Assembly (NCBI GenBank): GCA_965238265.1
Contig: OZ250185.1
Span: forward strand, 989,153 to 1,053,152
Length of the DNA stretch: 64,000 bases
Direction of reading: 5' to 3'
Origin: Chloroflexota bacterium
Lineage (GTDB): Bacteria; Chloroflexota; UBA11872; UBA12225; JAJDUF01
This document shows, in pieces, positions 421 through 26,640 of this stretch. The number at the start of each line of letters is the position of its first letter. The stretch's first letter is position 1. The position numbers and the translations under genes are program-made. The notes beneath the pieces are model-generated. The model saw only the letters and a list, made by a program, of their open reading frames with translations. It was not told where the DNA came from and did not search any database.

Positions 421-720
421 CTAGTGGTACTTCACCAAGTAGACACCTTCTGCATCTACGATCTCTTTGGGTGCTGCGCCAAGGGTTCGTATTTGCTGCT
501 CGCCCACCGCAGCTGGGTCACGCCACGTCATCACTATCGCGCCTTGTTGCAGCTCCCCATGCCACTGCGCCAGCACCTCCCAAACCCGCTCCCGGATACC
601 CTGCGTCATCTGGGGCGAGGTGTACACGCCAGGCGCTATCTCCAACATCGCCGAGGCGAGAAACCCTCGATACCGCGCCTCGACGTTAACCGTGACGACG
701 ACGGTCATGCTGCACCTCAC
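421..720 (-). CDS. cas2: Cas2 (type I-E) endoribonuclease / spacer-integration subunit
   Basis: The 99-aa ORF (MTVVVTVNVEARYRGFLASAMLEIAPGVYTSPQ...) has the typical Cas2e N-terminus and overlaps the cas1 stop. Confidence 0.85.
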   Translation of the reverse strand: MRCSMTVVVTVNVEARYRGFLASAMLEIAPGVYTSPQMTQGIRERVWEVLAQWHGELQQGAIVMTWRDPAAVGEQQIRTLGAAPKEIVDAEGVYLVKYH

Positions 721-1684: not shown

Positions 1685-1761
1685 CTGTCACCTCGGTCAG
1701 TCCCCGCCGCCGCGGGGAATACCTCTTTGGTTGTTAAGGTACGTCAAGCGGCGGCATCCGC

Positions 1762-3344: not shown

Positions 3345-3347
3345 GGC

Positions 3348-4529
3348 TCACCCGGCCTCGCCGTTCCGGACGGCCTGCGCGACCCAGGCGGCCAGGTCAT
3401 CGAGGCAGAGCCGCTTCGCCTGGGGCAGGTCGCAGTCGTCAACCGCCATGACCCGCCGGCTCTCCCGTGCGCCATAGGCAGCATCCAGTTTGGATAGGTG
3501 CTTGGCCAGGGCGTCCACGGCCGCCGCGGTCCGCGCCTTCACCGGCGTTCGGAAGGCGTTGGCGAGGCTGCGCGGCTGGCGCGATCCGGCCTCAATCAGC
3601 ATCAGATCGGCATAGCCGTAGGGCGCGGTGGAGCCGAGCTTGGCCCCCGGCGAGACAGTAGCGATCAGATGCACCAGGTGCTCCACTACCTGACTGGCGA
3701 GGGTCTTGTCGGCGTTGGCCCAGGCCTCGGCGTCGCAGCCCGTCAGGTTGGACACCAGCCCCGGCACGTCCACGACGACGTAGCCATAGAACAGCCCCGC
3801 CGTCAGCTCCATATCGCCGATGTGGTCGGCGCCCGGGTCCTCGTCTACGTCCCGCAGGTCATCCACCACGGAGAAGTAGTCGCTCTCGCTTTCCTCCTGG
3901 TGGACGGTGAAGGCGTGGGCCACGTGGATGGCGGCATCAATGTTCGCGCCGGGATCGGACGTGACCATCCGGCCGAACAGGGCGCCGACGAGTCCGCCAG
4001 GCAGACTGGTCTGCTCCCGGAAGGCCCGGAAGTTCTCGCGCTGCTCGTTGCGGCGCTGGGTGCTGAACAGCAGTTTGGCGGCCTCAGCCGCGGCTTTGGG
4101 ATCGTCGTGATGCTCTTTGCAAATCGCGGCGGCCTGGTCACGGAGATATTCGACCTCCGCGTGGCCGAGCAGCAAGGGTTGCCGGCCGCTCCTGTCGGTA
4201 CCTTTCTCGCCGTACACGCCCTTCTGGAACTCCGCCTCGACGCCATCCAACACGTCCTCGGGGACGCCGTTCGCCTCCCGCAGCGGCTGGATCACGCTGC
4301 GCGTGACCACCTCGCGCGAGCGGATAGCGTCCGCGGCCCCATTGATATTGTGGAGCGCGAACTCGTCGTCCGCCACGCGCCAGTGTCGCTTGAGGCACTG
4401 AGACGAGACACGGGTTCGCACGGCATCGCCGAACGGCAGTCGCTTGGCGAGACCGCTGTCGTCGCGGTTCAGCAATGCTGCCGGGTACGAGTGCAGGGTA
4501 TGGATCTGCAGGAATCTTGGGATAGTCAC
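3348..4529 (-). CDS. cas7e: Cas7e (CasC) Cascade backbone subunit
   Basis: 393-aa ORF (MTIPRFLQIHTLHSYPAALLNRDDSGLAKRLPFGD...) with the hallmark Cas7e N-terminal motif. Confidence 0.88.
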   Translation of the reverse strand: MTIPRFLQIHTLHSYPAALLNRDDSGLAKRLPFGDAVRTRVSSQCLKRHWRVADDEFALHNINGAADAIRSREVVTRSVIQPLREANGVPEDVLDGVEAEFQKGVYGEKGTDRSGRQPLLLGHAEVEYLRDQAAAICKEHHDDPKAAAEAAKLLFSTQRRNEQRENFRAFREQTSLPGGLVGALFGRMVTSDPGANIDAAIHVAHAFTVHQEESESDYFSVVDDLRDVDEDPGADHIGDMELTAGLFYGYVVVDVPGLVSNLTGCDAEAWANADKTLASQVVEHLVHLIATVSPGAKLGSTAPYGYADLMLIEAGSRQPRSLANAFRTPVKARTAAAVDALAKHLSKLDAAYGARESRRVMAVDDCDLPQAKRLCLDDLAAWVAQAVRNGEAG

Positions 4530-4558
4530 TTCATGCCTCCTTACTCTGTGTTCGCTTC

Positions 4559-5155
4559 CTAGTCTTGCGGACGGCTCGCGCGGTTCTCCGCCCAGTAGTA
4601 GCGCCGCGCTATGTCGCGGCGAACGTAGTCCGCTCGCTCCTCGTTGTAACCATCATCGAGGATCAGTTGAGCCATCCGATACCAGTCGAACGCGCAGCCT
4701 TTGGCGCCCAACATGCGGAACATGCGCGCCAGCAGCGTCCGCAGCATCGGGCCGCGCGCAGTCAGCAGCCGGTTCAGGCGCGACTGACTGTAAAACTCGG
4801 TCGCTCTGCTCCGGTCGTCGCCGTAGAACAGCGCCACGCCAATGGGCGTATGCCGGTCGTGCGCTGATCGGCTCATGGCATCGCTCTCTGCGGTGCGGGT
4901 CATCAGCGCCAAGCCGTGCAGGACCAGCGCCCACTTGTGTTCGATAGCCGGACTGCCGAGCAAGTCGTACTGCGCCATCAGCCACCAGAAGACGGCCGCG
5001 TCCGGCTTGTCCGGGTCCATGCGGCGCAACTCGGCCAGGTCGCCGCGCGGAAAATCCTCGGCTGCCAACTGACGGGCAAAGCCGACGGCGACCTCACCCC
5101 ATGGGCGGCTCTGCACTGGCTGGTCAGGGAGTTCAGCCGTCGTTTCGGTCGTCAC
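4559..5155 (-). CDS. cse2: Cse2 (CasB, Cas11) Cascade small subunit
   Basis: 198-aa Arg-rich helical ORF lying between cse1 and cas7e. Confidence 0.8.
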   Translation of the reverse strand: MTTETTAELPDQPVQSRPWGEVAVGFARQLAAEDFPRGDLAELRRMDPDKPDAAVFWWLMAQYDLLGSPAIEHKWALVLHGLALMTRTAESDAMSRSAHDRHTPIGVALFYGDDRSRATEFYSQSRLNRLLTARGPMLRTLLARMFRMLGAKGCAFDWYRMAQLILDDGYNEERADYVRRDIARRYYWAENRASRPQD

Positions 5156-5158
5156 TCG

Positions 5159-6730
5159 CTACCTCCTTCTTGGGGGGAATAGCTCTGGGAATCCGTCTTT
5201 TGGCCCACGGATTCGCCCCTCGAATACGCTGTCGGCACGTACCCTAGCCCGGTAGCGTTGGATGGCCGGACAGGGCAGGGAATCCTCAGCATCCCGGAGA
5301 ATCCGCCGGGCGTGGTCTATCACGCCGTCCTTATCATCGTTCTTCAGCCAGCGGTGGCGAATACCCTTCCGCTCGGACTCGGCGGCCTCGAACTCCGTTT
5401 GCAGGTGATGGAAGAAGTCACGGTCAACGATCTCGTCGAGCTTATTGGCCCAGGGGTTGGCACGGTCACGCTGTTCGTCTCCGACGCCCTCGGTCTTGCC
5501 GCCCGCGGCGAAGGTCCAGATAGCATGTCGCAAGATGCGCTGCACTTTGCGAACATCCTCGACGCGTTCGCTCGCGATCCGGCCTAGTTCTTCGAGTCCA
5601 TCGGCGCGGCTGATAATCGGTATCACCTTCCCCTTGAACGGGATGATCCGCTCGTGATAGCCCTCGGTCTTGCCTTGACCGCGCACCATTCCGCGCGCGA
5701 CCAGCAGCATGTCCTGCGGCGAGCGGCGCTCGGCAGCGGTCAGCCTGAACAGAGGCGGCGCTTGCCAGTCGGTGGAGAGGTAGTCAACGGTTTTCTTGTA
5801 GGTGAAGCCGCCGGTGGGCAGGGTCAGCGACTTGCTCTCCTTCCTGTTGACGGGTGTCCAGGGGTCGCCGCTGAGGCCCTTCAACGCTTTGGCCTCGATG
5901 CGGGCCGCTTTGGAGGTAGCGCGGATGACGCTCACCCTTCCAATCGGATCGGCTTGCAACCGGATACGTCGGCAAATCTCGATATAGAAGGGATCGAGGT
6001 CGCTGAGGAGCAAGGCCTCAGCCTTTGTCCCATCCCAAGCCTTTGTCCACAGCAGTTGGAATCCGCCATCGCGCGTGAGGTCAAGGTCGAGGATGTTTTC
6101 GCGTTGCTCCAACAGCGCCCCAATGTCGCGGCGCACGTGAACCCCCGGCCGCACGGACGGGGTGAGGGTGAAGGCCGGCCGGCACCCCAACCCGCCGTTC
6201 ATGCGGGAAATCCCGTAGTTGCCCGCGCCGCCAAAGCCCTCCGTGGTTTGGAGCGTAATCAGCGCGAATAGCCAGTCGTTGATTGTGGCCGCCGACGCGA
6301 CGGCCGATTTGAGGTCGTGGTTTTTCGACGTGACCAGCATGTCTAGCTCGTCGGGCGTCTCGACCGTGCTCTTGTACTCGGCGAGCTTGCTCGGCGCGGA
6401 GGCCGGCGGCTGCATGAAGGCTGGCTCGCGGATGTCCGCGACGACCAGCTGCCACGGCTCGTCATCGGGATAGTCGGGTGTGAGGCCGCGAATGAGGTCC
6501 CGCCACTCCTCGGCAGCGGCCGGCGGCTCGCTAAGGCCGGCGCGGTGGAGCGACATGGCGCCGAGCTGGACGAGGAAGGCGTGCCAGGCGTGGCGCTGGT
6601 GCGGCCGCAGCACCGGGAAGCTGTCTACCCTGTCCGCCATCAGCGCGGCATAGACCTGCGGCAGCGTGGCCGCGACCGTTCCGTCGGCGGTGTTCATGTT
6701 GATGAGGGGTTCTGTGAGTAGGTTGAACAT
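5159..6730 (-). CDS. cse1: Cse1 (CasA, Cas8e) Cascade large subunit
   Basis: 523-aa ORF (MFNLLTEPLINMNTADGTVAATLPQVYAALMADRVDSFPVLRPHQRHAWHAFLVQL...) with the conserved Cse1 N-terminal motif. Confidence 0.88.
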   Translation of the reverse strand: MFNLLTEPLINMNTADGTVAATLPQVYAALMADRVDSFPVLRPHQRHAWHAFLVQLGAMSLHRAGLSEPPAAAEEWRDLIRGLTPDYPDDEPWQLVVADIREPAFMQPPASAPSKLAEYKSTVETPDELDMLVTSKNHDLKSAVASAATINDWLFALITLQTTEGFGGAGNYGISRMNGGLGCRPAFTLTPSVRPGVHVRRDIGALLEQRENILDLDLTRDGGFQLLWTKAWDGTKAEALLLSDLDPFYIEICRRIRLQADPIGRVSVIRATSKAARIEAKALKGLSGDPWTPVNRKESKSLTLPTGGFTYKKTVDYLSTDWQAPPLFRLTAAERRSPQDMLLVARGMVRGQGKTEGYHERIIPFKGKVIPIISRADGLEELGRIASERVEDVRKVQRILRHAIWTFAAGGKTEGVGDEQRDRANPWANKLDEIVDRDFFHHLQTEFEAAESERKGIRHRWLKNDDKDGVIDHARRILRDAEDSLPCPAIQRYRARVRADSVFEGRIRGPKDGFPELFPPRRR

Positions 6731-7004
6731 GGTTGTCGTCCTTGCTATGGGGTATCCTTAACTAGAACGGATGTCCAGAAGCGAGGTTGTGCAACTACAC
6801 GCTAACGGGGATTGGGCAACTCATGCACCGGCTTGTCGTCCATGGTTACTTGCGCTCCGGTCCCATCCCGGCCCGGAGCGACCACTACCTGAAACAGCAC
6901 ATCCTCAGTGATGACCGAGACGCATAGGGATTTACTTACTTGAGTGACCAGCCGAAGGTCATCCAAACTGGTACAATCGGACGGCCACAGGCCATAGGGA
7001 TAAG

Positions 7005-7087
7005 TGCGGTAGGTGGGACTCGAACTCACACGGCCACAGGCCACGTAGCTCCTGACTACGCGCGTCTACCAATTCCGCCACTACCGC
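7005..7087 (-). tRNA. tRNA-Leu-like class II tRNA sequence (possibly a pseudo-tRNA or att remnant). It has a 7-bp acceptor stem (GCGGTAG / CTACCGC), a Leu-type D-arm (GGCGGAATTGGTAGAC), a long variable arm and a T-loop (GTTCGAGTCC). The anticodon loop reads TCAGGAG, one nucleotide short of canonical UUCAGGU. The T-stem has one mismatch and no CCA is encoded.
   Basis: By-eye fold of the reverse complement of 7005-7087. The sequence resembles E. coli tRNA-Leu(CAG) through the D-arm. No tRNAscan was run. Confidence 0.4.
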
Positions 7088-7173
7088 GCGAACTCCCTAA
7101 CGTCGGAATCCTTCATTGCCCTTCAAAGGTTCATTGTATAGAATGGGAGCGCGATGTGTCAAGCACTCCCACT

Positions 7174-7266
7174 GGTTCCCCGCAGACAGACGCGGGGGTA
7201 GACCACTTCGTAGGGCGATGCTCACACATCGCACATTGGTTCCCCCGCACACGCGGGGTTGCGGGC
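7174..7266 (+). CRISPR. Degenerate mini-CRISPR of two decayed I-E repeats in plus-strand canonical orientation, opposite to the main array. The repeats are GGTTCCCCGCAGACAGACGCGGGGGTAGACC and GGTTCCCCCGCACACGCGGGGTTGCGGGC. They are separated by a ~33-nt spacer-like segment and preceded by an AT-richer leader-like stretch (ttcattgtatagaatgg).
   Basis: Both copies match the array repeat (GGTTCCCCCGCACACGCGGGGATAGACC) at about 80-90%, and their ~64-nt spacing is close to the 61-nt array period. They sit in the cas3-cse1 intergenic region. Confidence 0.5.
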
Positions 7267-7282
7267 GCCGGGGCTGTGCCGG

Positions 7283-9928
7283 CTAGAGTCGGCGCAGCCC
7301 CCGGCGGTCGTAGCGGCAGCGTCGCTCGCCAAGGGGGAACTCGAATCCGTCACCGTCCGGCGACGGTACTACCGACTCTGGTTCCTTACCGGACGGCAGC
7401 CAGTCCATCCGCAACGCCAACTTGTCAATCTGCTGCGAGCTGTCGAACGGGCTGGGCTGCGGGGGATCGAGGATTACGTCTAGCCGGTCGTCGCCGAGGC
7501 GCGTGCGTATCCGCTCCTCCTTGCCTGCAAAGGCGATGCCCTGATCGAGGAAAGTCTTGCAGCGCTCAATGACGACATGCTGGCCAGTGACGTTGTCCGC
7601 GATTCTCGCGCCCTCGACCTCGTTTGCATGGACAATCCAGTCCTCGCCCATTCCCCGCGTAATGGCTTTCAGCGCGCCCGGATGCGTGGCCCGCTCCACC
7701 AGCCGCCGGTTCATCTCCGGGATGCGCCACTCGGGATATTCGTCAATCAGCCGCCGCGTCGCTTCCAGTATCCGCAAGTCCTCGTACACATGGCCGTGTG
7801 GCCCCAAGCCGTTCGCGTTCGGCGTGCGCTCCAGCAATGGGGCGAGGTCGTTGTCCGGCGGCGTCAGGACGGTGCAGGCGGGCGTCGTATGGCCGGCCGG
7901 CCGGTCGTGGTGCTCGTGCCGATGGAGGCGGCCGATGCGCTGGAGCAGCACGTCCGCCGGGCAGAGGTCGGTAATCAGCAGGTCCGCGTCAATATCCAGC
8001 GACTGCTCCAGCGTTTGCGTGCCGACGACGATATGTCCACCGCCGGGCGGCTGTTTGCCAAGCTGCCGTTCCACCTCCTCATCCAGCAACCGGCGGTCCG
8101 CGGCGGCGAACCGGCCATGATGCAGCGTTGGCTTGCCGCAGACGGTGAACAGCAGCCCGGCGTCGGCGGGGCCGGCCAGCTCTTCTATCGCTTGCTGGGT
8201 ATTGATGGCGTAGTCAACGGTGTTGCGAACCACCAGGACCTTTGCACCGGCACGGGCGGCCGTCAAGGCGCGGTGGGCGGTGTCGTCGAAGTCGTGCATC
8301 CTGGAAACCGCCGTGATATGGACGCGCTTGCGCTGGTCGTTCTCGTTGGCCGCGAGGACCGCTTCACGGCCGTCTCCCAGTGTGGTGACCGCCGGGTATG
8401 CGGTGTTGATCGCGTCATCCAGCGAGAGGGACGGGGCCTCGCTGGTGCGGCGCGGCCGGAAGAGCCAGCGCAAGCGGGCCGCCGAGCCGAGCGTGGCGGA
8501 CATGAGCAAGGCGTAGCCGCCGGCGCCGATGTGGGCAGCGAGCAATTGCTCCAGAATGGCGCTCATGTAGGTGTCGGAAGCGTGAACCTCGTCTACGACC
8601 AAGAGATTGCGCGCCAGGCACGCGGCCCGCATATGGGCGTTCTTGACTTGGAGCGCGCCCAGCATCGCCTGGTCTACGGTGCCGACGGCGATCTGGGCAG
8701 CGAGGAACCGCTTGGGGTTCTCGGCAGCCCACGGTCTGTCGCGGTTGTAGTCCGGCAATTCCACGCCGGCGGCATCCGCGTCAGGTTCGTAGCCGGGGAC
8801 GGCGAGCACCACGGGCGGCCTGTGCTGTGGCAGCAGCTTGCCGATGAAGCGCTTGACGCGCCCGTGGATCTGGACGGCGGCCGCTCGCGTGGGCAGGGCG
8901 AAGTAGAGGCCGTCCACCAACTGTCGCTCGTACATCTTGGCAAAGCGCCAGAGCGCGGCCTCCGTCTTGCCGGAGCCGGTTTCGGACTCGATGATGACCA
9001 GCTGCTGATCCAGCGGCGTGCGCTGTGCAGTCGCTTGGATGGCGTTCGGCGTGGGTGAACCGGGTATGTCGAACAGCTCTCCGAACTCCGGTACGCGAGT
9101 AAAGCCGTTCCGCTGACCGAGTAAGTCCAGCCCTATCGCGCCGATGGCCTGCTTCGCCTGTCGCTGGGCCGCCTCGAAGTAGTCGTCCCGGTGTTCGTCA
9201 ACAAACGGGAACCAGTCCTCGTTGGAGCCAATCCAGTCGGCCCAGTTGCACAGTCCCAGGAACATGTGCTGGAAGGCGGGAGCGGACGGCAGTGGCGGGG
9301 CACCAGAGTCGAACGCCGCCGGGAACCATTGGCGCACCAGCTTGCCGATCCGCGCGACGCAGCGGCGCGGGTGAAGCTCGCCAAAGGAGCACCAGACGCG
9401 CGCGTTCTCCGACCGGCTGTCATGCAGATTCAGCGGCTCACCGTGATGCGACAGCGCCGCGACGAATAACGCACACGCGGTCACGCCGCCATCGCTATCC
9501 CAGGACAGAACGTCATCATCCCATCCCAGCGCCTCGAAGAACCACGCGGCAGTTTCCCCGTCCCTGCCAGTAAGCACGGGTACTAGGTCTGCCGTGTGTC
9601 CGGTGCGCGGTGGTTTCCTCTTGTTCGACAGGTCTTCCGGGCGCCAGATTCGCGCCTGGAAGCCGACGTTTACCTTGCCGATATCGTGCAGGGCAGCGAA
9701 GACAGCCAGACGCGCAGCGGTTGCGTCGTCGAGGTGGTCGAAACCAGCGGTCCAGGCCAGCCGGTTCCGGATGATCGGTTGGGCCAGCAGTGCCTCGAAG
9801 CAGGCGCCGACATCGGCAAGGTGGTACTCGAGCAGGTGAATGTCCTCCGGACCCCGTTGCCGGCCAGGGGCCGCCTTGGCCCAGAACAGCCTGGTGTAGG
9901 CCGGTGTGCCCTCTACCCGGCCGACCAC
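7283..9928 (-). CDS. cas3: Cas3 HD-nuclease / SF2 helicase (type I-E). A GTG start is predicted at 9928, overlapping the vapC stop.
   Basis: The 881-aa ORF has an N-terminal HD domain (...HLLEYHLADVGACFEALL..., HD motifs), helicase motifs (GSGKTEAAL Walker A, DEVH-type motif II) and a C-terminal domain. Confidence 0.88.
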   Translation of the reverse strand: MVGRVEGTPAYTRLFWAKAAPGRQRGPEDIHLLEYHLADVGACFEALLAQPIIRNRLAWTAGFDHLDDATAARLAVFAALHDIGKVNVGFQARIWRPEDLSNKRKPPRTGHTADLVPVLTGRDGETAAWFFEALGWDDDVLSWDSDGGVTACALFVAALSHHGEPLNLHDSRSENARVWCSFGELHPRRCVARIGKLVRQWFPAAFDSGAPPLPSAPAFQHMFLGLCNWADWIGSNEDWFPFVDEHRDDYFEAAQRQAKQAIGAIGLDLLGQRNGFTRVPEFGELFDIPGSPTPNAIQATAQRTPLDQQLVIIESETGSGKTEAALWRFAKMYERQLVDGLYFALPTRAAAVQIHGRVKRFIGKLLPQHRPPVVLAVPGYEPDADAAGVELPDYNRDRPWAAENPKRFLAAQIAVGTVDQAMLGALQVKNAHMRAACLARNLLVVDEVHASDTYMSAILEQLLAAHIGAGGYALLMSATLGSAARLRWLFRPRRTSEAPSLSLDDAINTAYPAVTTLGDGREAVLAANENDQRKRVHITAVSRMHDFDDTAHRALTAARAGAKVLVVRNTVDYAINTQQAIEELAGPADAGLLFTVCGKPTLHHGRFAAADRRLLDEEVERQLGKQPPGGGHIVVGTQTLEQSLDIDADLLITDLCPADVLLQRIGRLHRHEHHDRPAGHTTPACTVLTPPDNDLAPLLERTPNANGLGPHGHVYEDLRILEATRRLIDEYPEWRIPEMNRRLVERATHPGALKAITRGMGEDWIVHANEVEGARIADNVTGQHVVIERCKTFLDQGIAFAGKEERIRTRLGDDRLDVILDPPQPSPFDSSQQIDKLALRMDWLPSGKEPESVVPSPDGDGFEFPLGERRCRYDRRGLRRL

Positions 9929-10338
9929 GGATTCATTACCTCAATCCCACAGCCGGCAAAGTCATCCACATCCCGGGTCGCAACCCGTGCCCCTCGGGAG
10001 CGGGCAATCGCTGCGATCTGGCAGTCGGCCTGATTGATCGGCCGGCCAGCGGCACGGCGATCCGCCGCGATCACCGCGAATGCTCGGGCGGCCGCACTGT
10101 CGAAGGGCAAGATACGGTCGGCGAATAGGACACCGAAGGCACGCTCGGCCGCGGCAGCCAGACCGTGCCGCCGTCTTCCACCGGGCAACAGTGCGATGCC
10201 GCTGCGGATCTCCGCCTCAGTGACAGCGGTCACGAATAGGGTGCTCGCCAGCTGCTGGTCCAGCCAAGCAAGGACCTCCGGCTGCGGGTAGTCCCGCATC
10301 AGTTCCGAGACAACATTGGTATCCAGAACGATCATCAC
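9913..10338 (-). CDS. vapC: PIN-domain toxin VapC/FitB-like (copy A)
   Basis: The 141-aa ORF carries the four conserved PIN acidic residues (IVLDTNVV, TEAEI, DCQIAAIA, TRDVDDF). Confidence 0.85.
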   Translation of the reverse strand: MMIVLDTNVVSELMRDYPQPEVLAWLDQQLASTLFVTAVTEAEIRSGIALLPGGRRRHGLAAAAERAFGVLFADRILPFDSAAARAFAVIAADRRAAGRPINQADCQIAAIARSRGARVATRDVDDFAGCGIEVMNPWSAG

Positions 10339-10345
10339 CGTTGGC

Positions 10346-10630
10346 TCAGTCGAACCGGGGCGGTTCCCGCATCGGTTCCCGCGGCGGGATATCCAGCTCT
10401 ACGCTGCCGAAAGGCTTGAAAAGCTCGTGGATGGCTGTACCGAGGTTTCTTACGGGGGCTTTCTCCTGCCCGAGCGCGGCTCGCAGGATGTCATGCACCT
10501 CCTCTTCCAGGGAGTGGCCATGCTGGGCCGCCCGGCGGCGGAGGCGCTGCTGTAGGCTCTCGTCGAGGTTACGGACCGTGATACTGGCCATGCTCGTACC
10601 TCCGTCTGTCAACTCATTCCATCGTACCAC
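10346..10630 (-). CDS. vapB: VapB/FitA-like antitoxin (copy A). The probable true start is the internal Met at about 10591 (MASITVRNLDESLQQRL...).
   Basis: Small ORF immediately upstream of vapC that ends 8 nt before the vapC start. Its FitA-like N-terminus is typical of a plasmid-stability-protein antitoxin. Confidence 0.75.
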   Translation of the reverse strand: MVRWNELTDGGTSMASITVRNLDESLQQRLRRRAAQHGHSLEEEVHDILRAALGQEKAPVRNLGTAIHELFKPFGSVELDIPPREPMREPPRFD

Positions 10631-10715
10631 GACTGCACCGCAAGCAATTGGCCGGCCGAAGGCGGCGGGCGTCGTAGTCCAGAATGGAGAGCGGATTAGG
10701 GGTTCCGCGAGTATG

Positions 10716-10750
10716 GGTAGTGTTGCCTCACTCTCTCCGCTCGCCTATAA
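10716..10750 (+). promoter_or_regulatory. Near-consensus sigma70-like promoter TTGCCT-N17-TATAAT inside repeat copy A. It faces rightwards, antisense to the recombinase fragment. An identical copy lies at about 26507-26541.
   Basis: Motif read directly from the sequence (ttgcctcactctctccgctcgcctataat). Function unknown. Confidence 0.35.
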
Positions 10751-10788
10751 TTGCCGGGCGCAATGACCGGGGCGCTGGGCTTGGGAAC

Positions 10789-11240
10789 CTACAGGGGCAC
10801 CACCAATTCAAACGTGGTACTGCGTACAGTCCCCTCAGGCCCACCAGAATGTACTGTACTGCGAACTCGCCCATTCAGGGCGATCTCTGCGGCGTCCGCT
10901 CCACCTATCGGAGAGTCTTCCGGCGTGGGTATGGAGTAGACGATGGCGGCCCTGCCGGGCTTGACCTCGATCTCCTTGACGAAGGGCCGGACGAAGACCC
11001 TGGTCTCCGTCAGTTCGCTGGTCTTCAGGAAGTCGCTCATCTCCTCGGCGAAGGCGGCGATGGTGTCGGCGCTGTCGAGGAACTGCCGCCGCTCTGCCAG
11101 CAGCCCTCTGGCCTCCTCTGCGGCGACCTCCAGCTTCTCCTTGCGCTCCCGGTGCTCCCTGATGCGCTCGGAGGCGTCGGCCATCTCGATGTCGGTGGTC
11201 TCGATGACCTGCCGGATGCGGCCCAGCCGCCGCTTGGTCG
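10789..11240 (-). pseudogene. C-terminal fragment (~150 aa) of a large serine recombinase: coiled-coil plus the C-terminal ...FVKEIEVKPGRAAIVYSIPTPEDSPIGGADAAEIALNGRVRSTVHSGGPEGT... segment. The N-terminal catalytic domain is absent.
   Basis: The C-terminal half of ORF 10789-11778 resembles the conserved tail of large serine recombinases, whereas its N-terminal 180 aa are low-complexity nonsense. Confidence 0.45.
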
Positions 11241-12707: not shown

Positions 12708-15844
<3,137 letters not shown>

Positions 15845-15925
15845 GGCGTCCGTCCTGCCCCGGACATGACATGGTCATTCCAATTGGGCAGCTGGCTCTT
15901 TCGCTGTAGCCCTATGTAGTCGTTG

Positions 15926-16306
15926 TCACGGTGCCGCTGAACGCTCTTCAATGATGACTTCGCCGTCGGCCCATGTTTCCAGCGTTACGCTACTGTCCCA
16001 GAGCAGATCCATTCCAAGCAGCGGGACACTATCCGATTGCAGCACCAGCGCATCAGCCAAGCGTCCGTGCCAGGATACCGTAGCACGGTAGGTATTGAAT
16101 TCGAATGGCTCCCCATTGGCCAACTCGAAGATTCGATAACCTGCCGAAGGAAGTCCCAACCGCCGAATGGCATCCGGGGGTAGTGTCAAGTAGCCGGTGA
16201 ATCCGGTGTCCAAGACGACCTCCAATTCTTGGAGGCGGTCCTCGCTGTCCATAACGGCTAAGGTAATCAAGGCTTGTTGGTACTGGTTTACTTTTCCCCT
16301 AATCAT
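15926..16306 (-). CDS. Retropepsin-like (clan AA) aspartic protease with a DTGF motif (VLDTGFTGYL)
   Basis: 126-aa ORF with a single D-T-G active-site motif followed by F, the size expected of a homodimeric retropepsin. Its ATGA start overlaps the stop of the upstream small ORF. Local GC is about 52-54%. Confidence 0.65.
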   Translation of the reverse strand: MIRGKVNQYQQALITLAVMDSEDRLQELEVVLDTGFTGYLTLPPDAIRRLGLPSAGYRIFELANGEPFEFNTYRATVSWHGRLADALVLQSDSVPLLGMDLLWDSSVTLETWADGEVIIEERSAAP

Positions 16307-16572
16307 GGCTTGAACGTCAAGCTCCCGCCGCCCATGCTGTAGGCAGCGCGATAACCGACCCGCAGTCCATAGATGACGGCATCCGACCGCCGTTGCTGCA
16401 ATCGGCGCGTGGCTGTTGCGTCGTTGGCATCCAACTCGTAATCGCCGGTTTCGATGTCAATGACCACGAACTTGCCGTGTTCCTGCGGCTCCACCAAGCG
16501 GCGTATCTTTTCCCGGTAGATCGCCTCGCCGCGAGCGCATGCCTCCTTGGGGCTATAAGTCCGGGTTGTCAT
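16303..16572 (-). CDS. Small 89-aa protein of unknown function, translationally coupled to the aspartic protease
   Basis: An ORF with a 4-bp ATGA overlap onto the downstream protease gene. No fold was recognised by eye. Confidence 0.5.
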   Translation of the reverse strand: MTTRTYSPKEACARGEAIYREKIRRLVEPQEHGKFVVIDIETGDYELDANDATATRRLQQRRSDAVIYGLRVGYRAAYSMGGGSLTFKP

Positions 16573-16639
16573 AGCATCCTCCCGTTGGCAGTCGCCGATG
16601 ACGCCGCGTGTAACGGCTCCATACCAGTATACCGGGCGC

Positions 16640-16860
16640 TAGTTGTCAGACGGTCCGCTGCCGGGCCCCAGCGTCGGCCCGGCCGGGCGGGTCAGCCGGC
16701 GGAAGGAGCCATACAGCGCATCGGCGGGAGGTCCGCTCGGCGCCGGGGGCGTCGGGGGCGATGTCCGGCCCGTGCGCCACCCGCCAGCCGAGGGCGGCCA
16801 GCCAGTCAAGGGCGGCGGCCTCAACGTCGGCTTCGGTGAGGGTCATTGGCGCGTTCACTG
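16640..16860 (-). pseudogene. Decayed ~220-bp duplicate of the hsdR 5' end: about 85% identical to 15598-15850 with a ~60-bp internal deletion and frameshifts
   Basis: ORF 16646-16858 ([42 protein letters not shown]...) parallels the HsdR N-terminus, and the nucleotide alignment to 15598-15850 is visible by eye. Confidence 0.7.
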
Positions 16861-17745
16861 GTTTCTAGCCTTTGCCCACATCAGTGATGACCGTCGAAAG
16901 GCTGACATTTTGGCCGTGTACCGATAGGCATTAGGCGGTTCTAGGTGGGAATTCGAGAGGTGTTCGATCAAGGCACCATACAGAGCAGCCAAATGCGTAC
17001 CTGGTATCGAACCGCCTTCTGTCTCCGCGCCTTCGGCGAAGAACCAGTCATAATCCGATTGTGCAACTTCAACAGGATATTTGTGAATTGAGATGCCTTC
17101 CTGCCCATCCATTTTCCCGTAGCATATGATTCCTTTGTTCAAGAGCACCGACATATTAGGCAGCAAACTAGGATCAACCGACGAGAGAAGAGTCATCACT
17201 TTTCCGAATTCGAAATCGCCACCATCTATACATAGAAGAAATGCATATAGGCTGTTCAAATATTTGTTCGGGCTGGCTAGCACGATATCATTCATTGATG
17301 TGGAGTCCTTAAGTCCTCCATGGAAGGTGTTTTCTACAAGAGGTCTATCCATTCCAGAAATCTGTTGCAAAACGTCATGCAGTTTCTCATAATAACGTTC
17401 GGACTGATAATAGGTTGATTTCACCTCACCGATTGCATATACGGAGGTTACGGGTACGTACTCGGTGCCATCTTTGGTAGTCAGCAACGACGGGAGGCTG
17501 AAATTGTCGGCGATGATTACATCCAATTGCGGGCTGACCAGATTGCTTGAATCGATGAGGTGACCGCTTGTAACATAGTAACGAGGCGGCAACATACGTT
17601 TCAAGTAGTCACGAACCGATTGTTCAACCTGGTTTCCAGCCGCTCTAATGTCTGTGGGGTGAATTCGAATGGCCTCCTCGCGTGCTCGCTGTAGGGCTTC
17701 CGCATCCGATTTGAAGATTCCTGCGAGGTTTAGGGTACTTGGCAT
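16855..17745 (-). CDS. Hypothetical 296-aa protein with a candidate PD-(D/E)xK nuclease motif (QLDVIIAD ... YAIGEVKST). It lies between hsdS and the hsdR remnant, and its GC (~48%) is well below that of its neighbours.
   Basis: The motif spacing (D ~30 aa before E-x-K) is consistent with a restriction-endonuclease-like fold. The composition shift is visible by eye, and no other homology was recognised. Confidence 0.45.
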
Positions 17746-17770: not shown

Positions 17771-19375
17771 TCACAATGCCCCCACCTCACCCGACACCAG
17801 CCTCGGCAACAGCGCATCCCGCAGGTCGGCCAGGGTGCGTGATTCCGTTTTGGTTGACTCCATCTTGTCGAGGATGGAGCCAGCACTCATGGAAAACCAG
17901 TCCAACACGTCAGTTCCAGCAGTGGGAATTGCTACTTCAGTTTCACTAACGACCTCTGGACGAACCGCCGGATATGCTGCGCCATCCGCTCGGTGAGCCA
18001 GCCACTCAATATTGTCTGGGGCTGTCGCTGCAAGATATACCAACTCCCGGAACCGTGGGTTCAAAGGCCGAAGCACGGCGAATCCGGTGCTTCCCGTCAG
18101 ACCATCGTTTCCTATAAGTGAGTAAGAACCGTTGCCCGGTCGAACTGTCCCAACTATGGTGTCTCCAGAGCGAAGGGCCCGTTTTGCCCTACTAGGGGCA
18201 TCCTTCCAAGAAAAATGTTGCGTGGATTCGATTACTCCCCACTTTGTGTTCGCCAAGTCAACGTATTCGATATCTGTGGGGCTATTCGTTCTGGACCAAG
18301 ACTCAGGGTTGAGATTCGAAAACTCCCCGACCGCCTTCACCTCCCACCCCGCCGGTATCTCCCCCAGCTCCGAGGCCACCAGGCGCTCCGGGAACAGCGC
18401 CCACAGCTCCGGCGGCAGGTACGGCGCGCGACCGGCCAGCTTGGCGCGCGTGGGGCCGAAGTCCACGAACCAGTCCTGGAAGAGGGCGCGGGCCATGGCC
18501 TCCAGCGTCTCGTTCATCCGGCGGTTGAGCGCGATCTTGTCGTCGAGGGTGCCGAGGACGTGGGCGATGGCGCGCTGTTCGGGGAGGGGAGGTGCAAGTA
18601 CACTCAACGACTGGATCATTGCCTTCGTAAGGGCGTTTCGAGTTCCGCCTGATCCTGCCCAAGACAAGAGCATGGTCTGTGTCTCAGGACAAGCGAGGAA
18701 ATAGCGCAGGAAGCGCGAGTCTAACTGGTTTGGGTCTGTCCGAATGATAGCGACGTGCTGGTTCACCCGTGCCGGAAGCACTCCGGGATCAACCTGGCAC
18801 ACACGCGCCACCGAATCGCCGGTAATGTTCAGTAGCACATCATCTGGAAAGACCTCGACGTTCCGCAGGCCGTGCGCCTGTTCATCACTGATATAGGCCA
18901 ACCCCTCGTGGCTGAACCCAGCATTGTAGACGTTCTGGCTACGAATCAATGCGTAGGGTCCGTCTTCCAGGTAGACATCCCGGCCCCCTCGTGGCGTGGC
19001 TCCACTGCCAATTTTGGTGCAGGCATCTCCAAGCACTATTTCCCGCCACTCGCTCGCCGCTGCCGATTGCTCGTCCGTGCCTTGCTGCAACACTACGTAG
19101 TCGCGCTCTATCACCGCCCGGAAGCGCTCGGGGATCGTGTGCCAGTCGTGTACGTCCACCCGCATGGGCAGGTCCGATTCCTCAAAGGCTTCCTTCAGCC
19201 GACCGAGTACTCCCCACTCCAGCGGTCCCCCGCCGACAACGGCCAGGTCCAGGTCGGAGTAGTCCTTCGCGGTCCAAGTCGCACGGGAACCGAAGGCGCG
19301 TATCTCGCACGCCGGCACGTGCTCCGCCAGGATGCGCCGGACCGTGCCGAGGTGGTGCGGGTTGAGGTCAATCAT
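17771..19375 (-). CDS. hsdS: In-frame fusion of a minimal nucleotidyltransferase (MNT, residues 1-~105; GSRATWTAKDYSDLDLAVV) to a type I specificity subunit HsdS (residues ~112-534, two target-recognition domains)
   Basis: A single 534-aa ORF. The N-terminus has the GS-x9-DxD nucleotidyltransferase motif. From SEWREIVLGDACTKIGSGATP onwards it is a canonical HsdS with central and C-terminal conserved helices (LPEQRAIAHVLGTLDDKIALN...). No ATG separates the two parts. Confidence 0.75.
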   Translation of the reverse strand: MIDLNPHHLGTVRRILAEHVPACEIRAFGSRATWTAKDYSDLDLAVVGGGPLEWGVLGRLKEAFEESDLPMRVDVHDWHTIPERFRAVIERDYVVLQQGTDEQSAAASEWREIVLGDACTKIGSGATPRGGRDVYLEDGPYALIRSQNVYNAGFSHEGLAYISDEQAHGLRNVEVFPDDVLLNITGDSVARVCQVDPGVLPARVNQHVAIIRTDPNQLDSRFLRYFLACPETQTMLLSWAGSGGTRNALTKAMIQSLSVLAPPLPEQRAIAHVLGTLDDKIALNRRMNETLEAMARALFQDWFVDFGPTRAKLAGRAPYLPPELWALFPERLVASELGEIPAGWEVKAVGEFSNLNPESWSRTNSPTDIEYVDLANTKWGVIESTQHFSWKDAPSRAKRALRSGDTIVGTVRPGNGSYSLIGNDGLTGSTGFAVLRPLNPRFRELVYLAATAPDNIEWLAHRADGAAYPAVRPEVVSETEVAIPTAGTDVLDWFSMSAGSILDKMESTKTESRTLADLRDALLPRLVSGEVGAL

Positions 19376-19790
19376 TGCGCGCTTCCAACGCCGCCAGCAG
19401 CAGCCGCGCGTCGTGTACGAACTCCCTGGTGGCGCTATAGACCAGCGCGGCCTTCGCCTCGTCGTAGATGTGGGAGGTGACGTTCCTGGCTTCGTGATGC
19501 TGCATCCAGAGGTCTACGTCGGGAATGAGCCGATTTTCGGCCGCGAGGCGGAATAGCTGCCGCCGCGTGACGCCATCCGCGACGTCGGGGCCGACGTAGG
19601 TCCTCAACCAGCGCGCCATCAACTTCCAGGAAAGCTCGTAGGTGACCTCGAAGTTCTGTATAACGCCGGAGCGAATGCCGTTCCGCTCGACCTCGCTCAA
19701 CTCTCCCATGCGCGCGTCATTTTCGCTGACCGCCAGCAGGTCTGCGAGCGCTCTGATCGCGTTTCTCAGGTGGTCCAGCTCCAGTGGCAT
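19368..19790 (-). CDS. HEPN-domain protein (HI0074-like nucleotidyltransferase substrate-binding family; R-x4-HxY motif RNVTSHIY). It is the HEPN partner of the MNT fused to hsdS.
   Basis: 140-aa ORF whose stop overlaps the start of the MNT-hsdS ORF, and which carries the HEPN motif. Confidence 0.7.
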   Translation of the reverse strand: MPLELDHLRNAIRALADLLAVSENDARMGELSEVERNGIRSGVIQNFEVTYELSWKLMARWLRTYVGPDVADGVTRRQLFRLAAENRLIPDVDLWMQHHEARNVTSHIYDEAKAALVYSATREFVHDARLLLAALEARND

Positions 19791-19863: not shown

Positions 19864-20301
19864 TCATTCCCAAGTCTCCCCGGTCATCGTCTGGTACAGC
19901 CCAATGGCATCGTCAACAAAGTCATCCACCAGCGCCAGGGCTTGCTCCGCTTTTTCGCCGCTGTAGTCGTGGGTCGTGTCAATGCGAGCCTGTATGTATT
20001 CGTTCCATTGTGGGAAGGGAGACGAGAGCAGATTGTTCGCATCGGCCAAACGGAAGATGGGCCGGGGACTGCGGGGAGCTTCAGCAACGCCCAATTCTTC
20101 TTGCAGGTAGCGCCGGAGCACTTTATGCAGCGCATCGTAGCAGGTCTCGAACCGCTGAATCACCGATTCGGCCATTCCCTCATGGATAAATTGCGGCAGC
20201 GCCGGGTCAAGGTGTTTCCGATGCTCATGCTGCAATTCCAGGTTCTTGAGGGATTTTCTGAAGTTGCCGTAATCAATCATTGCCGTGCCCCGCTCACGCA
20301 C
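19864..20301 (-). CDS. HEPN-domain protein, second copy (R-x4-HxY motif RIDTTHDY)
   Basis: 145-aa ORF immediately downstream of the interrupted MNT at 20304-20656. Its GC is about 52%. Confidence 0.7.
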   Translation of the reverse strand: MRERGTAMIDYGNFRKSLKNLELQHEHRKHLDPALPQFIHEGMAESVIQRFETCYDALHKVLRRYLQEELGVAEAPRSPRPIFRLADANNLLSSPFPQWNEYIQARIDTTHDYSGEKAEQALALVDDFVDDAIGLYQTMTGETWE

Positions 20302-20680: not shown

Positions 20681-22276
<1,596 letters not shown>

Positions 22277-22518: not shown

Positions 22519-24294
22519 CTATGTGCCTTCCCAATGCAACGAAGTACGGCGCTGATCTAGTTCGACAATGACCTTGGCAAAGAGGAATCCGTAACGCTCA
22601 ACGCTAGGATAGTCCTGCGGCTCGCCATTCACACGCAGCGTCAGCGGGCATCCCCGCGGCCTATGCACAAGGATGCAGGCATCCTGGAGCTGCGTCTCCG
22701 CTGTAAGGTGGATGCTGTGTCTGTCGTCGAAGGTGAACCGCACGGCGCGGCGTGCTCGCTCCCAAGCATTGATCTCGTAGGACTGCCACCACGGCAGCCC
22801 GCGTGTGCTGACGAGCTGTACGAGGTCTGTCATCGCAGTTGGTACGCCTGGACGGAGGACATGGTTGGGGTGGAAGAGATAGTGTGCAATACCGTAGTGT
22901 CGCTGCACGCGGTCGAGCAGTAACGGGCCTGCTGAGTAGGGCGCGAGCCAGCCCGGCCGGGCGTCAGGATCACTGACCGGGTGCATGAGGTCTTGGGTCA
23001 GCAGATTCACTTCCAGTACGTCGCTGCATACTCCCGAATCCGGATCCATGGGAAACCAGGGATGGGAGCTCCCCACGAGATACCCCGTGTTGCCGCGCCG
23101 GTTTGGACCCTTCGTTTGATCAGTAGCGACGCCAAGTTTGGTGAGCCAGTGGAAGAACTCCAAGTACCCTTCCCAGCGCAGACCATGGTTCTTGTTGGTG
23201 ATTACGGCATCCAGCCCAGCTTCCTGTTTAAGGTACGACCACTGGAAGCGTAGGTCCTCAAAGCGCCACCGCGTATGCTCCATCTGGGTGCGCGCATCGA
23301 AGTGGAGCGCGAGCTCGCTCCCCGAGGACCGCACGGCGTCGTAGAACTGGCGGGTGTAGCCGGGGTAGAGGATGCACCAGGTTGACTTGATCCCGAGCTC
23401 CTGCACGCGCTCGAGCATGTGCCACGCCTTCTCGATCTGGTTGCCATCGGAGTCATGCGAGAGGTGCGCGATCGCTGTGAGGTCACCGGGCCAGTACCAC
23501 AGCAGTGGAAACACCGCGCGGGCGTGCGTGGCGCAATAGAAGACGCTGCGCAGGAGAATGGCGCGCAACTCATCACCAATCGCTTCCAAGAAGAAGGGGA
23601 CTTCGGTGTCGTGTGTACGATCCCGGTTCCAGTCCAGCACCATGCCGTCTTCAACGTTGAACCTGCCGTCGTCAATATCGGCAGTACCATCCGGAGCAGG
23701 CACGCCATCCTGAAAGATGGGAATGCCTTGCAACATGTGCAGGATACACCAGGGCAAGTCGGCGGCCGTAAATAGAACAAGCCCCCGGCCCTGCCGGTGC
23801 TCTGAAATCCCCACACCAACCTGTTTGCCATCGGCGTCCGTCAACTCCGCCAGGACGGTTGCGCCAGAAACCTGGGCCGTGGCGGCGTCCCAGACGTGGA
23901 GTGAACTGTGGAGGTCGCGGACGACCACGTGATGTGGCTGCGTAACACGCAGAAATCCTTCGTGCAACCCCGACTGCGACTGCACACCACAGAGGTCGTC
24001 GAGGCCGCTGGTGCCTCCCAAGGCAACCAAGGCCCCTCCGCTGGCGACGAACCGGTACATCGCTTCTACATCTGGTGGAGAAGTATGGTGAGGGAGGAGG
24101 ACCACTCTGGTATCGAGGAGCGCTTCTGCGAGACCGGCAGAGTCGATGCGCGCGAACGGGATGCCGGCATGGCCCAGCACCTCCAGGATGTACCGCGAGC
24201 GGGGATGGTATGCACCATCCTGCAGATAGACGCCGATGGAGCCGGGATGGCCACGGATCATGGCTGTGTATCTCCTACAGCGGGGCCGCTGCAA
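22519..24294 (-). CDS. Hypothetical 591-aa protein. The N-terminus may be a class-I glutamine-amidotransferase-like / ThuA-like domain, and the C-terminus a polysaccharide-deacetylase-like region. It heads the co-directional island.
   Basis: A long ORF with only weak motif resemblance. The call is by eye. Confidence 0.3.
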   Translation of the reverse strand: MQRPRCRRYTAMIRGHPGSIGVYLQDGAYHPRSRYILEVLGHAGIPFARIDSAGLAEALLDTRVVLLPHHTSPPDVEAMYRFVASGGALVALGGTSGLDDLCGVQSQSGLHEGFLRVTQPHHVVVRDLHSSLHVWDAATAQVSGATVLAELTDADGKQVGVGISEHRQGRGLVLFTAADLPWCILHMLQGIPIFQDGVPAPDGTADIDDGRFNVEDGMVLDWNRDRTHDTEVPFFLEAIGDELRAILLRSVFYCATHARAVFPLLWYWPGDLTAIAHLSHDSDGNQIEKAWHMLERVQELGIKSTWCILYPGYTRQFYDAVRSSGSELALHFDARTQMEHTRWRFEDLRFQWSYLKQEAGLDAVITNKNHGLRWEGYLEFFHWLTKLGVATDQTKGPNRRGNTGYLVGSSHPWFPMDPDSGVCSDVLEVNLLTQDLMHPVSDPDARPGWLAPYSAGPLLLDRVQRHYGIAHYLFHPNHVLRPGVPTAMTDLVQLVSTRGLPWWQSYEINAWERARRAVRFTFDDRHSIHLTAETQLQDACILVHRPRGCPLTLRVNGEPQDYPSVERYGFLFAKVIVELDQRRTSLHWEGT

Positions 24295-25703: not shown

Positions 25704-26129
25704 CTACCCGGCCGACCACGGATTCATTACCTCAATCCCACAGCCGGCAAAGTCATCCACATCCCGGGTCGCAACCCGTGCCCCTCGGGAGCGAGCAATC
25801 GCTGCGATCTGGCAGTCGGCCTGATTGATCGGCCGGCCAGCGGCACGGCGATCCGCCGCGATCACCGCGAATGCTCGGGCGGCCGCACTGTCGAAGGGCA
25901 AGATACGGTCGGCGAATAGGACACCGAAGGCACGCTCGGCCGCGGCAGCCAGACCGTGCCGCCGTCTTCCACCGGGCAACAGTGCGATGCCGCTGCGGAT
26001 CTCCGCCTCAGTGACAGCGGTCACGAATAGGGTGCTCGCCAACTGCTGGTCCAGCCAAGCAAGGACCTCCGGCTGCGGGTAGTCCCGCATCAGTTCCGAG
26101 ACAACATTGGTATCGAGAACGATCATCAC
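25704..26129 (-). CDS. vapC: PIN-domain toxin VapC/FitB-like (copy B), identical to copy A
   Basis: Its translation is identical to ORF 9913-10338. Confidence 0.85.
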   Translation of the reverse strand: MMIVLDTNVVSELMRDYPQPEVLAWLDQQLASTLFVTAVTEAEIRSGIALLPGGRRRHGLAAAAERAFGVLFADRILPFDSAAARAFAVIAADRRAAGRPINQADCQIAAIARSRGARVATRDVDDFAGCGIEVMNPWSAG

Positions 26130-26640
26130 CGTTGGCTCAGTCGAACCGGGGCGGTTCCCGCATCGGTTCCCGCGGCGGGATATCCAGCTCTACGCTGCCG
26201 AAAGGCTTGAAAAGCTCGTGGATGGCTGTACCGAGGTTTCTTACGGGGGCTTTCTCCTGCCCGAGCGCGGCTCGCAGGATGTCATGCACCTCCTCTTCCA
26301 GGGAGTGGCCATGCTGGGCCGCCCGGCGGCGGAGGCGCTGCTGTAGGCTCTCGTCGAGGTTACGGACCGTGATACTGGCCATGCTCGTACCTCCGTCTGT
26401 CAACTCATTCCATCGTACCACGACTGCACCGCAAGCAATTGGCCGGCCGAAGGCGGCGGGCGTCGTAGTCCAGAATGGAGAGCGGATTAGGGGTTCCGCG
26501 AGTATGGGTAGTGTTGCCTCACTCTCTCCGCTCGCCTATAATTGCCGGGCGCAATGACCGGGGCGCTGGGCTTGGGAACCTACAGGGGCACCACCAATTC
26601 AAACGTGGTACTGCGTACAGTCCACCTAGGCCCACCAGAG
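25705..26640. repeat. Direct repeat copy B (see 9915-10835). It carries the second vapB/vapC pair and a 17-codon recombinase 3' end.
   Basis: Near-identical to copy A. Confidence 0.9.
26137..26421 (-). CDS. vapB: VapB/FitA-like antitoxin (copy B)
   Basis: Its translation is identical to ORF 10346-10630. Confidence 0.75.
   Translation of the reverse strand: MVRWNELTDGGTSMASITVRNLDESLQQRLRRRAAQHGHSLEEEVHDILRAALGQEKAPVRNLGTAIHELFKPFGSVELDIPPREPMREPPRFD

Follow-up and report, generated by a model that had tools for sequence, protein, structure and literature searches.

The 64,000-nucleotide stretch of DNA analyzed here (the window) comes from a Chloroflexota bacterium (GenBank assembly GCA_965238265.1, contig OZ250185.1, positions 989,153 to 1,053,152 of the forward strand; all positions below are counted from its first letter). 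Within a type I restriction–modification (RM) operon, it carries two small overlapping genes, the upstream one encoding a small basic protein and the downstream one a retropepsin-like aspartic protease. The pair is a conserved, translationally coupled, horizontally mobile two-gene unit. Judged from sequence, the chances are about even that it is an autonomous, mobile module of the type II toxin–antitoxin (TA) kind, in which the protease would be the toxin. This reading is supported by features that are directly observed, namely obligate pairing, one-sided decay, coupling, co-evolution, conservation of the active site, fold and mobility. It is also supported by the TA or defense neighbors of some copies (ParDE, PIN, BREX, DISARM-like) and by the finding that the pair is intact beside a broken hsdR. 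The pair and its leader are as follows.

16303..16572, minus strand: small partner gene, 89 amino acids (aa), isoelectric point (pI) 9.2; from open reading frame (ORF) and translation
15926..16306, minus strand: gene for a retropepsin-like (clan AA) aspartic protease, 126 aa, pI 4.3, with the motif VLDTGFTG; from ORF and translation
16573..16645, minus strand: leader 5' of the small gene, with the Shine–Dalgarno (SD) sequence GGGAGG and a TATACT/GTATAC element; kept at the related loci L005 and L006

A coupled and mobile gene pair

An initial annotation of this DNA had proposed that the two ORFs form a translationally coupled, two-component module. Both ORFs are indeed present on the minus strand, and positions 16303-16306 of the plus strand read TCAT, so that the stop codon of the small gene and the start codon of the protease gene overlap as ATGA. 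A scan anchored on the protease, with each species represented by one genome, yielded 80 loci in other species, mostly metagenome-assembled genomes of Dehalococcoidia/Chloroflexota together with some Latescibacterota, Poribacteria and Pirellulaceae. The small gene lies directly upstream of the protease at 79 of these 80 loci, and an intact partner stands beside every intact protease (68 of 68); the small ORF is thus conserved with the protease in other genomes. All nine protease genes found on cyanobacterial plasmids likewise sit 3' of a small gene, with a 4-bp overlap. Across the family, the genes overlap by 4 or 8 nt at 100 of 110 pair junctions, and 139 of 151 small genes have an SD sequence in front of them. 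A promoter-like motif, TTGAM-N17-20-TAnnnT, is present about 46 nt upstream at 37 of 78 genome loci, against 0.9 expected. The distance matrices of the two proteins are correlated (Mantel r = 0.86, p ≤ 0.001, for 112 intact pairs), and the two proteins co-evolve. The coupled module proposed at the outset is therefore well founded, both in its pairing and in its overlap.

The family ranges over Chloroflexota, Cyanobacteria, Latescibacterota, Poribacteria and Planctomycetota. Homologous copies occur not only across several phyla but also on conjugative plasmids, and some genomes have two copies or tandem pairs. Among the plasmids with intact pairs are pCC7120alpha of Nostoc/Anabaena sp. PCC 7120 and a plasmid of Trichormus variabilis ATCC 29413. 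The PCC 7120 pair has the accessions WP_044523651.1/WP_010999818.1.

No description of this two-gene module was found in the full-text literature searched on bacterial retropepsin/aspartyl proteases, TA systems and phage defense, in keeping with the earlier remark that such pairs are uncharacterized. Of the characterized bacterial retropepsin-like enzymes, RimB (PMC11957791) and the Rlo proteases of P. aeruginosa (10.1101/2025.03.18.643919) are regulatory or processing proteases, and the abstracts of these two papers describe no such module.

One-sided decay

The two genes do not decay alike. At 12 of the 80 loci, the protease is a pseudogene, and the small gene is still intact at nine or more of them. 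The lesions comprise nonsense mutations (L034, L039, L064, L084), frameshifts (L052, L054, L062, L063, L070), a deletion taking out the DTG motif (L075), an insertion (L053) and a 5' truncation (L071); the nonsense and deletion cases are independent of the frameshift errors of long-read sequencing. Conversely, none of the 68 intact proteases is accompanied by a damaged or missing small gene. If disruption were random with respect to length, about 41% of the events would be expected in the small gene, but in this genome set the number observed is 0 of 9-12.

A second set was obtained by a scan of metagenome contigs anchored on the small gene, which gave 69 evaluable intact small genes. The protease is intact beside 44 of these, partial or split beside 13, and absent beside 12; among those without a protease, relics of one are visible at L119 and L129/L130. 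Thus, 0 of 68 intact proteases are unpaired versus 25 of 69 small genes without an intact protease (Fisher p = 4e-9, for sets drawn from different collections). In addition, an orphan small gene is found on one plasmid, from Oscillatoria. Such a pattern is what would be expected if the unpartnered protease were harmful and the lone partner harmless, and it lends independent support to the view, voiced in the initial annotation, that the pair is a TA-like candidate.

The protease

The annotation of the downstream gene as a retropepsin-like protease of clan AA holds: it encodes a bona fide single-domain clan AA protease. Its best match to a hidden Markov model (HMM) is NCBIfam TIGR03698 clan_AA_DTGF (E = 1.2e-12), and the score of 48.1 bits lies under the curated cutoff of 57.35 bits; the protein is thus a relative outside the curated boundary of that family. 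Matches to Pfam are weaker, with 19 bits for PF13650 Asp_protease_2 (E = 0.0024, below the gathering threshold of 24.3 bits) and a weak match to gag-asp_proteas, and a precomputed PF13650 match exists for a few homologues (P0050, P0059). Every one of 44 homologues has D33, F36, T37 and G38 of the LDTGFTG motif, and conservation of T34 and G35 is 90% or higher; L96, G98 and M99 of a second motif, LLGM, do not vary either. The predicted structure (pLDDT 91) has the all-β retropepsin fold, and retropepsins are its top fold matches. From the conservation of these motifs and the modeled fold, the enzyme looks active, and by analogy with its family it should need to dimerize. It is acidic (pI 4.3), lacks a signal peptide, and matches no PADLOC model at E ≤ 0.1.

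Like the window protease, members of TIGR03698 clan_AA_DTGF (the AF_0612 family) and of COG5550 are cytoplasmic proteins of about 120 aa with a single DTG(F) motif. To our knowledge, the description of TIGR03698 does not mention an obligatory small partner. Little is known of the prokaryotic single-domain clan AA peptidases COG3577 and COG5550, according to a 2009 survey of the clan (PMC2642776). More distant are ApRick/APRc of Rickettsia conorii (PDB 5c9b) and the retroviral proteases, with 13-17% sequence identity to the window protease. ApRick forms the soluble part of a protein anchored in the membrane, and neither ApRick nor the retroviral proteases have a dedicated upstream partner gene. 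The pairs of cyanobacteria are annotated by PGAP as "hypothetical protein" and "clan AA aspartic protease."

The small protein

The upstream gene encodes a protein with no match in Pfam, NCBIfam, PADLOC (E ≤ 0.1), PHROG or PDB. It has 86 close homologues, and a profile search gathered 3,418 representative clusters at 50% identity. The predicted fold (AF2, pLDDT 78) is α-β-β-α-β followed by a conserved tail of low confidence. Conservation is strongest at GEAIYR, at GKFVVIDIETGDYE and at the C-terminal RVGYRAAY (R71-Y78); the last of these falls in the low-confidence region of the model and is followed by a variable tail. The basic small protein (pI 9.2) and the acidic protease have complementary pI values, a hint that the two may interact.

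Tandem two-domain versions make up 33 of the 148 top representatives (among P0207-P0354), and there is one three-domain protein. Fusions of the small protein to the protease are rare (P0217, P0222) and are a further hint of such an interaction. P0281 is the sole fusion in the reverse order, and since it is a singleton on an 887-bp contig, it gives only a weak Rosetta-stone link. A phage origin of the pair is unsupported, as no homologue of the small protein was found in viral contigs or in the phage collection.

Genomic neighborhood

The initial annotation had argued from a defense island and had proposed enrichment of homologous pairs near defense genes as a check. This argument is not sustained. 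Homologues of hsdR or hsdM lie within 10 kb at about 4 of the 80 loci, namely at L006 and, in weak or fragmentary form, at L051, L068 and L069 (the strain-level relative L005 also has them); the link to type I RM is lineage-specific. The nearest neighbors, 473 genes, fall into 284 families. Among 148 immediate neighbors, the commonest Pfam families are TPP enzymes, HpcH aldolase, acyl-CoA dehydrogenases, amidohydrolase, ClpX and OGG; four or five are AAA_15/AAA_21 ATPases (AriA/PtuA/GajA/OLD-like), and most of the others have metabolic or housekeeping functions. PADLOC matches reach a comparable level in control genes 8-10 kb away, and there is no clear excess of defense genes near the pair over far from it. 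At one well-sampled locus of Dehalococcoidia, the pair is flanked by an HpcH aldolase on one side and a DUF2071/glycoside hydrolase pair on the other. The contexts therefore come close to being mainly housekeeping ones, and what is left of the defense link consists of the BREX-1, DISARM-like and ParDE copies.

Even so, unrelated lineages repeatedly have the pair within or next to defense and TA genes. In a Latescibacterota genome, the pair lies in a strain-variable SNF2–DUF1156 (DISARM-like) island, where its neighbors differ between strains and are OLD-like ATPases, a TIR protein or Phd–PIN. On plasmid pNSMS101 of Nostoc sp. MS1 (L175, 3001-3638), it is situated between pglZ and pglX of BREX-1, on the opposite strand. 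A plasmid of Nostoc commune has it between a helicase/RelE/Uma2 block and a DUF1156 gene, and on plasmid A of T. variabilis it adjoins ParDE; at the PCC 7120 alpha locus, there is a transposase and the NucA/NuiA nuclease–inhibitor pair nearby, and no ParDE. On soil contigs, it adjoins Phd/YefM-, MNT- or DUF433-like genes, which were recognized by eye. Operons of the BREX-1, DISARM-like and type I RM kinds host the pair in four lineages. A mixed context of this sort is typical of TA modules and is not evidence for a specific defense function.

A further observation concerns the BREX-1 operon of pNSMS101, whose pglX looks short (1728 bp) and is followed by an IS630 transposase; consequently, that operon may be disrupted.

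The restriction operon and its variable slot

In the window, the pair lies next to the hsdR remnant and the following genes, listed as context only.

16646..16858, minus strand: decayed, mosaic remnant of an hsdR 5' end, with a 70-aa ORF; homology at 16659-16843; adjoins the stop codon of the DUF6602 gene
12708..15844, minus strand: hsdR, directly downstream of the pair; from Pfam HSDR_N, SWI2_SNF2, T1R_D3 and T1RH-like_C and from alignment with hsdR of L005 and L006
16855..17745, minus strand: gene for a DUF6602 / PD-(D/E)xK NucC-like nuclease (PADLOC), a guest between hsdS and hsdR
17771..19375, minus strand: MNT-HsdS fusion, 534-aa ORF
19368..19790 and 19864..20301, minus strand: two HEPN/NTase_sub_bind genes
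20681..22276, minus strand: hsdM

The order of transcription is therefore hsdM, the two HEPN/NTase_sub_bind genes, MNT–HsdS, DUF6602, the hsdR remnant, the small gene, the protease and hsdR. The surrounding CRISPR-Cas, TA and RM genes are on the same strand as the pair, as had been stated at first. A scan of 15700-17000 found no sigma-70 promoter and no terminator consensus, and because none separates the pair from its neighbors, this strain probably transcribes it together with the rest of the operon. An Rfam scan of the whole window gave no match. The G+C content is 54.6% for the protease gene, 60.4% for the small gene and 57.6% for the pair with its leader, compared with 69.6% for hsdR and a window mean of 64.2%. 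Thus, the earlier claim that the pair (put at about 52-54%) lies below its flanks (about 65%) stands with respect to hsdR and the window mean, but the figures for the pair are higher than given and the DUF6602 flank, at 47.6%, is lower still. At third codon positions, G+C is 0.61 and 0.73 in the pair genes versus 0.86-0.92 in the hsd genes.

The hsdR of this strain is broken. Comparison with L005 and L006, in which hsdR is intact (1048 aa), shows that it has lost 10 bp (GGCGGTACGA, between GGCGG direct repeats) at about 14941 (14930-14950), which leaves ORFs of 328 aa and 728 aa. A sequencing artifact was considered and rejected, given the position between the repeats and the presence of the same allele in a 57× metagenome contig. 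Because this frameshifting allele recurs there, this strain probably lacks an active restriction subunit, with hsdM and hsdS intact. The pair itself is intact although the adjacent hsdR is broken.

The initial annotation had also noted a pseudo-copy of the hsdR 5' end, with a deletion of about 60 bp and loss of frame. This remnant is real. Window positions 16730-16843 are 82-84% identical to hsdR positions 15725-15838, and 16659-16735 are 81-87% identical to 15589-15666; a stretch of about 58-66 bp is missing from between these pieces, and the frame is not maintained beyond the gap. What fails is the accompanying idea that the target was partially duplicated when the pair inserted. The remnant is a mosaic. 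Its identity to the hsdR of its own operon (83.8%) does not exceed that to the hsdR of L006 (86.2%), and when the remnants of the three genomes are compared among themselves, their 5' parts show 72-82% identity. Furthermore, L005, a strain-level relative with 98.5-98.7% identity to the window on either side, differs over the segment corresponding to window 18337-16693, where it has another hsdS 3' half and a 525-aa FRG/TPR protein in place of DUF6602. The right breakpoint of this difference, at about 16693, lies inside the remnant. Given these identities and this breakpoint, at least the 5' part of the remnant appears to have arrived with another hsdR in a cassette exchange, and insertion of the pair with target duplication was rejected. 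Both L005 and the approximately 90%-identical L006 have an hsdR 5' remnant, then the same leader (CCCGGTATACTGGTATGGAGCCGTTACACG…GGGAGG), and then the pair. Since it is common to both, the remnant–pair–hsdR arrangement predates their divergence. The first remnant could have been a true duplication or could derive from a second hsdR.

The guest in the slot between hsdS and hsdR varies: a DUF6602 nuclease in the window (16855-17745), an FRG+TPR protein in L005 (L005:7743-9320) and an 8xMP membrane protein in L006 (L006:9028-9540), with an hsdR remnant after each; besides the remnant before the pair, L006 has a second one, which lies upstream of the 8xMP gene. The best reading of these sequences is that the slot would be a recombination hot spot, at which cassettes consisting of an hsdS half, an accessory gene and a donor hsdR start are swapped, with the dead hsdR fragment probably acting as the right-hand anchor for homologous recombination. 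On the same reading, the latest swap here would have involved the hsdS/DUF6602 segment and not the protease pair. The locus thereby illustrates how type I RM operons may swap specificity and accessory cassettes via a dead 5' homology anchor of hsdR.

Other features of the operon and the island

The MNT nucleotidyltransferase domain is fused to the N terminus of HsdS, and with the two preceding HEPN/NTase_sub_bind genes it makes up a type VII TA-like HEPN/MNT set inside the RM operon; a single PADLOC specificity-subunit model spans the MNT part of this ORF as well. Directly upstream of hsdM is a 591-aa ORF (22519-24294, minus strand) that is conserved in L001-L003 and L005 and has no match in Pfam, NCBIfam or PADLOC. 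A 936-bp direct repeat (99.4% identity; 9913-10848 and 25704-26639) flanks a segment of 14.9 kb, within which lie the type I RM operon, the protease pair and the 591-aa ORF. Each copy of the repeat encodes a VapBC/FitAB-like pair, with a ribbon-helix-helix (RHH) protein of 94 aa and a PIN protein of 141 aa, and the repeats could offer a route for deletion, duplication or transfer of the whole island.

The window begins with a CRISPR array (1-333, 61-bp period, repeat GTCTATCCCCGCGTGTGCGGGGGAACC), which is followed by a type I-E cas operon (421-9928) with Cse1 at about 5159-6730 and Cas3 at 7283-9928, according to precomputed Pfam matches on near-identical contigs. Farther away, an 801-aa ORF (52228-54633) contains two in-frame tandem repeat arrays, 92-95% identical, one of 3.6 copies of 78 bp (52759-53039) and the other of 4 copies of 75 bp (53704-54003). 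In L006, which represents the closest other species, a 580-aa protein of the SIR2-APAZ type (L006:891-2633; PADLOC Aga_SIR2-PNTD1-PNTD2, E = 4e-188) is encoded beside the RM operon, which suggests a short prokaryotic Argonaute-type system in that island.

A toxin–antidote model and its alternatives

Taken together, these results have led to a model for the pair in which the toxicity of the protease, its direct inhibition, the role of the tail and the biological trigger are what we infer. The downstream gene would give a cytoplasmic retropepsin-like aspartic protease that, like its relatives, is active as a homodimer and that is harmful if unopposed. The upstream gene would give a small basic α/β protein, supplied stoichiometrically through translational coupling, which would bind the protease and neutralize it. 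The likely binding element would be the conserved, poorly ordered tail RVGYRAAY, serving as a pseudo-substrate or inhibitor. The module would persist by addiction and/or because of a role in stress- or phage-triggered growth arrest, and its position in the RM operon would be a lineage-specific accident of insertion or recombination in a variable slot, with no dependence on RM. In its organization, the pair resembles type II TA systems such as ParDE, VapBC and Phd/Doc, whose two small genes also run in the same direction and overlap at stop and start, with the protective gene in the lead. As with these systems, the unit is mobile, its spread is patchy, multi-copy and includes plasmids and defense/TA islands, and the putative toxin is lost first, leaving orphans of the putative antidote. 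It differs from them in that the putative toxin is an aspartic protease, an activity of no known TA toxin, and in that the putative antidote has no known antitoxin or DNA-binding fold.

Several points weigh against this model. Many Dehalococcoidia have a single-copy pair that is syntenic in related genomes and lies between metabolic genes, a situation that also fits a domesticated cellular function. Searches with the small protein detected neither a DNA-binding family nor a DNA-binding fold such as helix-turn-helix (HTH) or RHH, and no inverted-repeat operator is shared upstream of 150 small genes; with neither a DNA-binding domain nor an operator palindrome, classic autoregulation is unsupported. 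The asymmetry of decay was tested on two different collections and with a narrow protease HMM, and some of the "partial" metagenome proteases may reflect the HMM or long-read assembly errors; the asymmetry could instead stem from an independent, selected function of the small protein. Furthermore, no known toxin or antitoxin is a homologue of either protein, and we know of no precedent for a protease toxin among the classic type II TA systems. Aspartic proteases are not mentioned in the TA survey of Makarova 2009 or in TASmania.

The main alternative is that the two proteins would form a non-toxic enzyme–partner pair with a housekeeping or stress role, in which the small protein is the substrate, the precursor or an obligatory cofactor or chaperone of a regulatory protease (compare the action of RimB on RimK/RpsF). 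The mostly metabolic or housekeeping neighbors and the synteny among related Dehalococcoidia agree with such a role, RVGYRAAY and the variable tail could be a cleavage site, and the characterized bacterial retropepsin-like enzymes are regulatory or processing proteases, as far as the abstracts describe them (PMC11957791, 10.1101/2025.03.18.643919). However, a joint need for both proteins predicts that about 41% of lesions fall in the small gene, where 0 of 9-12 are seen; orphan small genes are common and orphan proteases were not found; and the distribution is patchy and multi-phylum, with plasmids and tandem copies. We therefore regard a non-toxic pair as rather unlikely. A repressor/anti-repressor cassette like ImmR/ImmA, in which a DNA-binding small protein is cleaved by the protease upon a signal so that neighboring genes are derepressed, is very unlikely. 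Such a cassette would account for the order of the genes, with the regulator first and an overlap, for retention of the regulator after loss of the protease, and for a basic small protein beside an acidic protease. Indeed, in ImmR/ImmA and in the COG2856 protease–Xre cassettes (Makarova 2009, PMC2701414), a small regulator-like gene also precedes its cognate protease, with a mutual action that is known or proposed. Those cassettes combine a zinc metalloprotease with an HTH partner, neither of which is a feature of the window pair. Moreover, no HTH, RHH or other DNA-binding fold and no conserved operator were detected, and the neighbors are unconserved, which implies that there is no common regulated target.

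Because of its location, the pair might also be pictured as a guardian of the RM system, inserted with duplication of its hsdR target, that senses inhibition of type I RM and responds with abortive infection. The model for this is the PrrC anticodon nuclease, encoded within the EcoprrI (type Ic RM) operon; HEPN–MNT pairs are likewise embedded in type I RM operons. In these cases, as in the window, a guest gene or pair lies between hsd genes and is co-transcribed with them (probably so in the window), and the window operon hosts HEPN/MNT genes and a DUF6602 nuclease besides. In the window and in two relatives, the protease pair is found between hsdS and hsdR, and other copies reside within BREX-1 and DISARM-like operons. 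Yet PrrC is functionally tied to its RM partner, whereas the pair family is without hsd genes at about 95% of loci and, in the window, the pair is intact beside a frameshifted hsdR. Any hsd gene within 10 kb is seen at only about 4 of the 80 loci, a finding that led us to reject a functional tie to type I RM; neither protein matches a PADLOC model, there is no clear near-versus-far defense excess, and the mosaic remnant is no clean duplication. A guardian of this kind is accordingly most improbable.

A bolder form of the toxin–antidote model would take the pair as a new class, with a retropepsin-like toxin and a pseudo-substrate inhibitor of new fold. Its repeated embedding in methylation-based defense operons (type I RM, BREX-1, DISARM-like) would then reflect a second-line role in abortive infection, triggered by loss of the antidote or by inhibition of the primary system; this extension we consider unlikely. 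If the toxin–antidote model itself is correct, aspartic proteolysis by a retrovirus-type fold would be added to the activities of TA toxins, together with a new antidote fold, and a large family now annotated as "hypothetical protein" and "clan AA aspartic protease" would be given a function. With intact pairs on plasmids of cultured model cyanobacteria, the family is within experimental reach.

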